Made by a program: the position numbers and the translations under genes. The notes beneath the pieces are model-generated. The model was not told the origin of the DNA, made no database searches, and worked only from the letters and a program-made list of their open reading frames with translations. 64,000 bases of DNA from an uncultured Desulfurococcaceae archaeon (GTDB lineage Archaea > Thermoproteota > Thermoprotei_A > Sulfolobales > NBVN01), in the NCBI GenBank assembly GCA_964399035.1, contig CAYNPH010000009.1:73846-137845 (forward strand). Direction: 5' to 3'. Positions 38,875 through 39,045 of the stretch are shown here, one piece after another (the stretch's first letter is position 1; the number at the start of each line of letters is the position of its first letter).

Positions 38875-39045
38875 TAAAGGTGCCACTCCAGTTAATTCAT
38901 GTGGTTTTTATTGGCCACACCTAGGGAATTCCGCCTCGACTAAACGTCATCGGGTCATGGGCGACGGTCGAGACCAACGGCACGGTCCCCCATCTAGGGG
39001 ACCCCATGGGGCTTGGAGCACAGCTCCCAACCCATAGAGCTTACT
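38875..39045. ncRNA. Candidate structured non-coding RNA of unknown class (GC-rich intergenic element)
   Basis: A 318-nt ORF-free gap contains a GC-rich core with four or more stable hairpins:
- tgtgg/ccaca (38900-38919);
- ctcgac..cgtc/gacg..gtcgag (38935-38972);
- ggtcccc-catcta-ggggacc (38984-39003);
- ggagc-aca-gctcc (39015-39027).

A TATA-like gttataatgaa lies at about 38848. Strand and ends were not determined. Confidence 0.35.

Follow-up and report, generated by a model that had tools for sequence, protein, structure and literature searches.

In the 64-kb window analysed here (64,000 nt of contig CAYNPH010000009.1 from an uncultured Desulfurococcaceae archaeon), positions 38864–39086, between the gene for a GPN-loop GTPase and acdB, very probably constitute a 223-bp internally deleted, non-autonomous IS607 insertion sequence that encodes, with the minus strand as sense, the scaffold of a TnpB guide RNA (ωRNA). 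The insertion is polymorphic among close relatives, its junctions are of the IS607 type, its sequence is homologous to the 3′ end of tnpB and the right end of full-length transposons, and the RNA structure of its family covaries and is strand-specific. The element retains about 40 bp of the left end, with sequences like a transcription factor B recognition element and TATA box (BRE/TATA) and an apparent tnpA start codon, fused to the last ~175 bp of its parent.

The GTPase open reading frame (ORF) stops at 38817 and the start codon of acdB lies at 39136 (or is a GTG at 39124), which leaves a gap of 318 nt. The first-pass annotation of this DNA had described the gap as ORF-free, GC-rich in its core and dense in hairpins, and had proposed a stable structured RNA of a novel class, read from the plus strand behind a TATA-like box or possibly forming the 5′ leader of acdB. 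Its description of the gap is borne out: no ORF of 60 aa or more lies between 38817 and 39136, the ORFs present there are just 26–33 aa long with a TnpB tail remnant as the sole meaningful frame, and the GC content reaches 0.58–0.62 in 100-nt windows across 38900–39049 as opposed to 0.37–0.44 in the flanking spacer and ~0.46 in the neighbouring genes. Every hairpin that it quoted can be found in the sequence, and the statement that the class matches no known RNA family also stands, as Rfam 15 gave no match within the element at gathering thresholds across the whole window or at E ≤ 10 across 38700–39250, where the only matches were chance ones outside the element. At E ≤ 0.1, likewise, no family was matched at the loci of six relatives, full-length ones included. 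RNase P RNA and signal recognition particle (SRP) RNA were rejected because no consistent P4 pairing was seen by eye (conserved regions CR-I/CR-V and SRP motifs were inspected) and the Rfam models were silent, and a split or intron-containing tRNA within the element was rejected because ARAGORN found none. Compared with dinucleotide shuffles, the folding energy is only weakly distinguished (z = −1.66 for the plus and −2.16 for the minus strand); the element is placed beyond chance by comparative evidence, namely a family profile match and covariation in the family, rather than by thermodynamic stability.

With the GPN-loop GTPase as the protein query, syntenic loci were found in four Desulfurococcales metagenome-assembled genomes (L001–L004), along with one distant locus; an exact match to the GTPase protein itself was not on record. 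The 223 bp are missing from the orthologous intergenic site in all four of these closest relatives. The spacer of the relatives runs ...TTATAATGAATTGA|(N)CCCCACAAGAGC... or, from the GTPase gene to acdB, GPN-...TTATAATGAATTGA|CCCCACAAG...-acdB, with nothing between. Their empty site reads ...CTTGTGGGG|TTCAATTC..., and the alignment of empty and occupied sites (...TGTGGGG|TTCAA... versus ...TGTGGGG|CAGAATC...AAACGG|TTCAA...) leaves an ambiguity of only 2 nt, which is GG on the minus strand (GG/CC). The insertion point is thus a GG inside TGGGG, with GG at each junction. Because the empty site of the relatives contains GGGG, these four bases (39087–39090, minus strand) belong to the target; they adjoin the left end, hold the GG crossover dinucleotide and are predicted to be the transposon-associated motif (TAM). 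A repeat search across 38780–39180 revealed no terminal inverted repeats linking the two ends, and no target-site duplication was found at the junctions; a miniature inverted-repeat transposable element (MITE) with either feature was therefore rejected. The apparent direct repeat of TTATAATGAATTGA and TTATAAGATTCTG was set aside as a chance likeness of two TATA-like boxes, one of the old spacer and the other of the transposon left end.

With regard to the history of the insertion, L001–L003 are ~95% identical to one another in concatenated coding DNA, the window is ~88% identical to them, and L004, at ~83%, is the outgroup. Gain of the element in the lineage of the window is therefore the simplest history. 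An identical insertion occurs in a 171-kb ENA contig (L006), and the insertion is likewise carried by an independent Logan assembly (L007), on a contig that ends within the element; its presence in that independent sample shows that it is not an assembly artefact. At L007:1-110, which corresponds to window positions 38944–39045, the differences are concentrated in the GC-rich helices, and several run towards the family consensus (e.g. CCCCGCAGGG). Together with the contig end inside the element, this pattern suggests that other related copies exist in that sample, with gene conversion or repeat-induced chimeric assembly.

The origin of the insertion was indicated by a sensitive blastn search of plasmids, which gave one useful, weak match (74% identity over 75 nt) to a “TnpB-related” gene, at its 3′ end, on the Pyrococcus abyssi plasmid pGE2, oriented to the opposite strand of the window. 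The insertion terminus CCGTTTCTCCCTA was found by local alignment at 13 of 13 positions, collinear, at the stop codon of the pGE2 gene. The window minus strand and pGE2 share GGGAGC-NNN-GCUCCAAGC, then GUGCCGUUGG-N-CUCGAC, and the ending UAGGGAGAAACGG; the TnpB tail remnant described below is also evident in pGE2. Scanning of metagenome contigs with the motif GCTCCAAGC-N15-45-GTGCCGTTGGNCTCGAC yielded at least 119 stretches, while none was found in viral contigs. A viral origin was rejected, as viral contigs yielded nothing beyond chance 17-mers in four pattern scans and a phage collection gave no match.

At 27 loci among the matches listed, a same-strand ORF of 401–442 aa spans the motif and stops ~100 nt later. 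These ORFs match PF07282 (E = 2e-15) and TIGR01766 (71 bits, cut-off 32) and score 90 bits against the guided_TnpB subfamily, the cut-off of which is 100; the RuvC D/E/D residues are visible by eye in the TnpB sequences of the relatives. Directly upstream, and overlapping the start of tnpB, lies an ORF of 212–222 aa in which a MerR-like helix-turn-helix (HTH; ..ERLLRPKEVCQRLGISYSTLSRWVREGRI..) and a serine-recombinase motif (RAVIYARVSSSDQ) were recognised by eye. A putative serine-recombinase tnpA followed by tnpB is the gene layout of IS607. An IS200/IS605 element with a Y1 transposase and subterminal hairpins was dropped because the upstream gene of the full-length relatives encodes a serine recombinase and the junctions follow the GG rule.

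A profile built from sequences that excluded the window and searched with nhmmer aligns to 39033–38864 on the minus strand (E = 1.6e-29) and detected no further copies elsewhere in the window or in L001–L005. At the other end, the left end of the window element is homologous to the left ends upstream of tnpA in L116, L053 and L054, the L116 sequence CGGAAACGTTTAAGTATTTCAAACTATATCTTTTTGTATCGGAG...ATG being the counterpart of CAGAATCTTATAAATATATCAAATTACATCTTTTTGCTATGAG in the window. The window copy does not encode tnpA and keeps only an ATG remnant of it; it is therefore classed as an IS607 derivative and not as an autonomous IS607.

The structure of the family was examined in an alignment (A3) of 92 distinct copies that begins 32 nt ahead of the motif and reaches the right end. 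RNAalifold predicted 39 pairs in 7 helices, with compensatory changes in 18 of the 39, so the covariation that the first-pass annotation named as its check was found. In this alignment 96.3% of cells are paired, compared with 87.4% in shuffles (none of 500 shuffles reached the observed value), and the covariation score is 0.306, compared with 0.151 in shuffles and 0.04–0.07 when the partners were slid by 1–3 columns. The 50 tnpB-less copies alone remain 95.2% paired with 15 compensatory pairs, so that the structure cannot be put down to protein coding. Pairing drops to 87.0% in the antisense direction, and 390 G-U cells stand against 60 A-C cells; this asymmetry identifies the minus strand of the window as the RNA strand. 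The structured RNA thus lies on the sense strand of tnpB, overlaps its 3′ end, finishes at the right end and covaries, as is found for the ωRNAs of TnpB.

Within the fold, helices H1 and H2 (CUAUGG.../...CCAUGGG, 39003–39038; all helices are given on the minus strand) surround hairpin H3 and show compensatory changes in all pairs of H1 and in three of the four pairs of H2. The hairpin H3 (GGAGC at 39027–39023, GCUCC at 39019–39015) is the same in all 92 sequences. Helix H4 (38970–38989), with the conserved loop GUGCCGUU, is GAGCCC/GGGCUC in the family and GGGACC/GGUCUC in the window, where a double change from C-G to A-U, seen by eye in A3, keeps the pair. Helix H5 (UCGCC/GGCGG, 38931–38964; 97% paired) is accompanied by the almost invariant sequences CAUGA and CGAGG. 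There, an internal loop flanked by CCACC/GGUGG and itself nearly invariant places a CAU bulge and GA (38959–38955) opposite CGA (38938–38936); judged by eye against the consensus, this loop presumably resembles a kink-turn (K-turn). The closing helix H7 (CCUAGGUG/CACCuuUAGGG, 38872–38925) has an A-rich variable loop and compensatory changes in five of its eight pairs, for example UA in 52 copies versus GC in 31. Of the hairpins noted in the first-pass annotation, ggagc/gctcc is therefore the conserved helix H3, whereas the other three are not helices of the family: the ggtcccc/ggggacc stem competes with GGGACC/GGUCUC, the two-tier stem competes with UCGCC/GGCGG, and the tgtgg/ccaca stem falls in a variable loop.

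These data bear on the original proposal of a novel host RNA gene, read from the plus strand from the TATA-like box at ~38850 or as the acdB leader. The GC-rich, hairpin-dense and ORF-free gap and the lack of an Rfam match speak for such a gene, but the four relatives without the element keep both the TATA-like box and the block upstream of acdB, the homology to the tnpB 3′ end and the right end lies on the opposite strand, and the G-U asymmetry points to the minus strand. A T5 run at 38906–38910 on the plus strand, which we take to be a likely archaeal terminator, would also count against it. A host RNA gene is accordingly extremely improbable. The structure first noted does covary, yet what it represents is an IS607 guide-RNA module of a known class; a stable RNA on the plus strand is contradicted by the tnpB homology and the strand asymmetry, and a 5′ leader is excluded because the element is read in the direction opposite to acdB and because of the relatives that lack it. 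The plus-strand box exists, but it belongs to the original spacer, lies outside the insertion and, given the minus-strand sense of the element, is not the element's own promoter.

In the minus-strand sense, the element reads 5′-CAGAATC...GAGAAACGG-3′. It begins with the left-end terminus CAGAATC followed by the BRE/TATA-like TTATAAAT (39072–39086), which faces inward and may act as a promoter; transcription is predicted to start at ~39050. An ATG at 39046–39048 is probably the remnant of the tnpA start codon, as its position matches that of the tnpA ATG of L116. The homologue of the ωRNA scaffold, derived from the 3′ tail of tnpB and the right end, spans 38864–39038 and contains, at 38933–39028, the coding remnant of the TnpB C-terminal tail (approximately residues 378–412 of ~430; tblastn with the L053 TnpB, E = 6e-4). 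The scaffold finishes with the right-end terminal motif UAGGGAGAAACGG (38864–38876), identical at 13 of 13 positions to the sequence at the tnpB stop of pGE2. Beyond it, the flank-derived segment UUCAAUUCAUUAUAACUAAU (38844–38863, minus strand) is predicted to be the guide on the basis of ωRNA organisation (PMC10055086, PMC10690162); joined to GGGG, this segment equals the empty site of L002 and L003.

A heptamer of the (A/C)AGAAAC type stands in direct orientation beside GG at both ends (39080–39086 and 38866–38872), the family forms being GG|CAGAAAC on the left and GAGAAAC|GG on the right; in a second subfamily the left end has CTGTTTC and the right end GACAAAC. Such end heptamers would lie on either side of the GG core if the ends were joined in a circle, and they are candidates for TnpA-binding half-sites. 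Since the ends of IS607 carry short direct repeats bound by TnpA (PMC6188088), and the AGAAAC-type motif adjoins GG at both ends here, the structure could in principle act at the DNA level only, as binding sites of the serine transposase and with no functional RNA. That explanation is very unlikely: the covariation spans ~175 nt, G-U is tolerated on one strand only (the 390 versus 60 cells given above), a pattern that duplex DNA sites would not yield, and the homologous position in characterised TnpB systems is occupied by the ωRNA (PMC10055086, PMC10690162).

Tblastn with the TnpB of one family member showed that approximately 60–70 of 123 copies across metagenomes keep just the last 20–70 codons of tnpB, with a sharp 5′ cut-off. 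The right-end sequence TAGGGA(C/G)AAACGG is present with at most three mismatches in 104 of the 123 copies, full-length ones included. Copies end at ...UAGGGA(C/G)AAACGG and the flanks beyond are unrelated; this point at which similarity stops sets the right end in the window at 38864. In the subfamily to which the window copy belongs, the left start (GGGG)|CAGAAAC-TTTAWWW was found in mini copies such as L036, L030, L052, L098, L106, L125 and L089 and also upstream of tnpA in the full-length L053, L054 and L116, and GGGG forms the four bases 5′ of the left end in 19–20 of 20 distinct left ends. L036 has a window-like layout at 75% identity in an unrelated flank, which argues that the mini form itself transposed. 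Like MITEs and palindrome-associated transposable elements (PATEs), the mini copies have no coding capacity, keep both ends, occur in many contexts and show presence/absence polymorphism. On L043, two copies of the motif occur in the same orientation (294–350 and 1144–1200), and on L047 two occur in opposite orientations (261–316 and 4677–4731); these pairs within 1–4.5 kb show local clustering of elements.

Several points weigh against the assignment of the window copy as a guide-RNA module. The 64-kb window contains no tnpA or tnpB gene, and no TnpB or TnpA match beyond the tail remnant; the element is present there as a single copy, multiple copies being seen only across metagenomes. In full-length elements the structure partly coincides with coding sequence, and some of the conservation there is therefore owed to the protein. 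The window copy forms 31 of the 39 consensus pairs as aligned; at positions that hardly vary in the family, GUGAUGGGAGC is replaced by GUUGGGAGC and GGGAGCCCC by GGGGGACC, and the variable hairpin H6 is missing. Moreover, the promoter and transcript ends at this locus are predictions from sequence, the GGGG TAM is deduced from one empty site and the conservation of left-end flanks, and the use of the scaffold by TnpB in this archaeal clade is suggested by analogy with other systems. Given that no TnpB or TnpA gene is encoded in the 64 kb, the window copy may be an inert relic.

The main rival is accordingly an inert fossil, derived from IS607 and no longer transcribed or used, in which the hairpins decay neutrally; this is a real, if minority, possibility. 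It would account for the single copy, the missing transposon genes, the deviations at several nearly invariant positions, the missing hairpin and the cluster of differences in the GC-rich part of L007. On the other hand, both termini, the left-end BRE/TATA and the K-turn-like motif are intact along with the 31 pairs, and H4 includes a compensatory change. Absence of the hairpin characterises a subfamily, the H6-less short form being common to L064, L089 and L095, and does not reflect random decay, and the tnpB-less copies as a class retain the structure.

For a guide-RNA module in use, a possible mechanism was proposed in which the TAM, the transcript with its ends, its binding by TnpB and any present-day activity are all predicted. 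A TnpA serine recombinase acting in trans would have inserted the element, with crossover at the GG of TGGGG between the GPN-loop GTPase gene and acdB. The left-end BRE/TATA (CAGAATC-TTATAAAT, 39086–39072) could then drive a minus-strand transcript from ~39050, which may pass through the scaffold into the flank UUCAAUUCAUUAUAAC... and thereby comprise a scaffold of ~185 nt and a guide copied from the flank. The TnpB of a full-length relative elsewhere in the genome could bind this ωRNA in trans, and the complex would cut the empty site GGGG+TTCAATTC... (GGGG+TTCAATTCATTATAAC), as it is seen in L002 and L003. Such cutting may favour retention of the element or its re-copying by recombination. 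As the right-end junction is ACGG and not GGGG, the occupied site would escape cutting, in analogy to the difference between TCGG and TGGG in the Clostridium element (PMC10690162).

Roughly half of the copies found lack tnpB and keep the promoter, K-turn and full scaffold as predicted features. It is conceivable, though unlikely, that these tnpB-less copies are selected orphan guide RNAs for RNA-guided regulation of adjacent genes in hyperthermophilic archaea. TnpB, a nuclease-dead derivative of it or a ribonucleoprotein containing L7Ae might then be directed to neighbouring host DNA, and the target here might be the spacer with the TATA-like box between the GPN-loop GTPase gene and acdB.

The assignment to IS607 is in line with what is known of this family. 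IS607 has no inverted repeats and makes no target duplication; it inserts at GG with a preference for (G)GG, and it has GG termini and a 2-bp crossover (PMC6188088). One IS607-type TnpB uses the TAM TGGG and an ωRNA scaffold ending in ...UCGG (PMC10690162). The window element resembles H. pylori IS607 and the IS607-type IStron of Clostridium botulinum in the absence of inverted repeats and target-site duplication, the GG within (T)GGG(G) and the right end ...CGG. Its full-length relatives likewise have a serine-recombinase tnpA, with an N-terminal MerR-like HTH, followed by tnpB. Unlike IS607 and the IStron, the window copy lacks both genes and a group I intron, its family is hosted by hyperthermophilic archaea, and the candidate TAM is GGGG.

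The RNA itself shares with the ωRNAs, also termed right-end element RNAs (reRNAs), of ISDra2, the G. stearothermophilus ISGst and CboIStron the tnpB sense strand, the overlap with the tnpB 3′ end, the end at the right-end boundary, a flank-derived guide (predicted here) and a conserved covarying fold. In contrast to described ωRNA families, it has no detectable sequence or Rfam similarity to them, and its role as a guide is presumed. The RAGATH-18-derived reRNAs of bacterial IS607 TnpBs are located wholly downstream of the ORF and use the TAM AGGAG or GAGGG (PMC11061315); they too are guide RNAs of an IS607-associated TnpB, whereas their bacterial hosts, their position downstream of the ORF and the lack of an Rfam match here set the window family apart from them. 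A further TnpB, SisTnpB1, is of the IS605 type and uses the TAM TTTAA.

Protein-less mini elements of IS605 “often encode ωRNAs” and are acted on in trans (PMC10055086). The window element is comparable to PATE-like IS200/IS605 elements in being minimal, with both ends and an ωRNA, and in that it would need TnpA and TnpB in trans. The mobility of PATE-like elements, by contrast, depends on a Y1 (HUH) transposase and subterminal hairpins, whereas the window element is of the serine-recombinase IS607 family.

A further parallel is provided by sRk48 and sRk52 of P. abyssi, which come from intergenic loci present in several copies and matching an orphan IS607 OrfB at its 3′ end in the sense direction (PMC3124441). 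The sRk52 RNA starts 22 nt past a BRE/TATA, and the sRk RNAs are processed from ~180 to ~130 nt; they were detected experimentally, have covarying stems and a K-turn/K-loop, and bind L7Ae (PMC3124441). In the sRk48/sRk52 alignment the left end shows GGGCTGTTTC and the right end ...CCAGAACGG, comparable to the window-type ends, and its core AGAUG-GGGAG...CCGUU...CCCC resembles UAGAUGGGAGCCCCGUGCCGUUGGGCUC of the window. The scaffold sequence differs, and the window motif is absent from the sRk alignment, which makes the two sister families, the RNA of the window element being a predicted one. The class of element is thus already known, both as protein-less ωRNA elements (PMC10055086) and as a sister family in Thermococcales (PMC3124441).

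As the class and its logic are known, the current understanding of such elements is unchanged. What is defined here is an archaeal IS607-type ωRNA family that is missing from Rfam 15, with at least 119 metagenomic copies, covariation and defined ends, together with a predicted GGGG TAM and a K-turn-like motif. The family may be of use in the curation of RNA families and in the choice of thermostable TnpB/ωRNA pairs. The large share of copies that lack tnpB and bear a predicted promoter lends support to the view that guide-RNA modules propagate parasitically on full-length elements. Furthermore, GC-rich, hairpin-dense intergenic islands in thermophiles are easily mistaken for new host RNAs, as in the present case of a guide-RNA module from a mobile element, and comparison with the empty site is a way to recognise such modules.

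Two observations concern the spacer around the insertion. The plus-strand box TTATAATG at 38850–38857 lies 33 nt past the stop of the GPN-loop GTPase gene and is conserved in the relatives without the insertion; it may be an old promoter, belong to a terminator context or have no role, and it lies antisense to the guide predicted for the mini element. On the other side, the 49 nt before acdB (39087–39135, CCCCACAAGAGCTTTTATTTCCCCCACGTAGTGTTAAGTGGGTTTCGCC) are near-invariant in the window and L001–L004, while the coding DNA differs by 12–17%. This block contains a TATA-like box TTTTATTT ~30 nt before the acdB ATG and the palindrome CCCAC-N10-GTGGG, and probably represents the true promoter of acdB together with a site for a regulator, left intact by the insertion. 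Elsewhere in the window, where ARAGORN reported no tRNA or tmRNA, Rfam gave a tRNA match of 97 nt at 30429–30525 on the minus strand (50 bits) that covers the full 71-position model; because 97 nt span the 71 positions, this tRNA match probably contains an intron.

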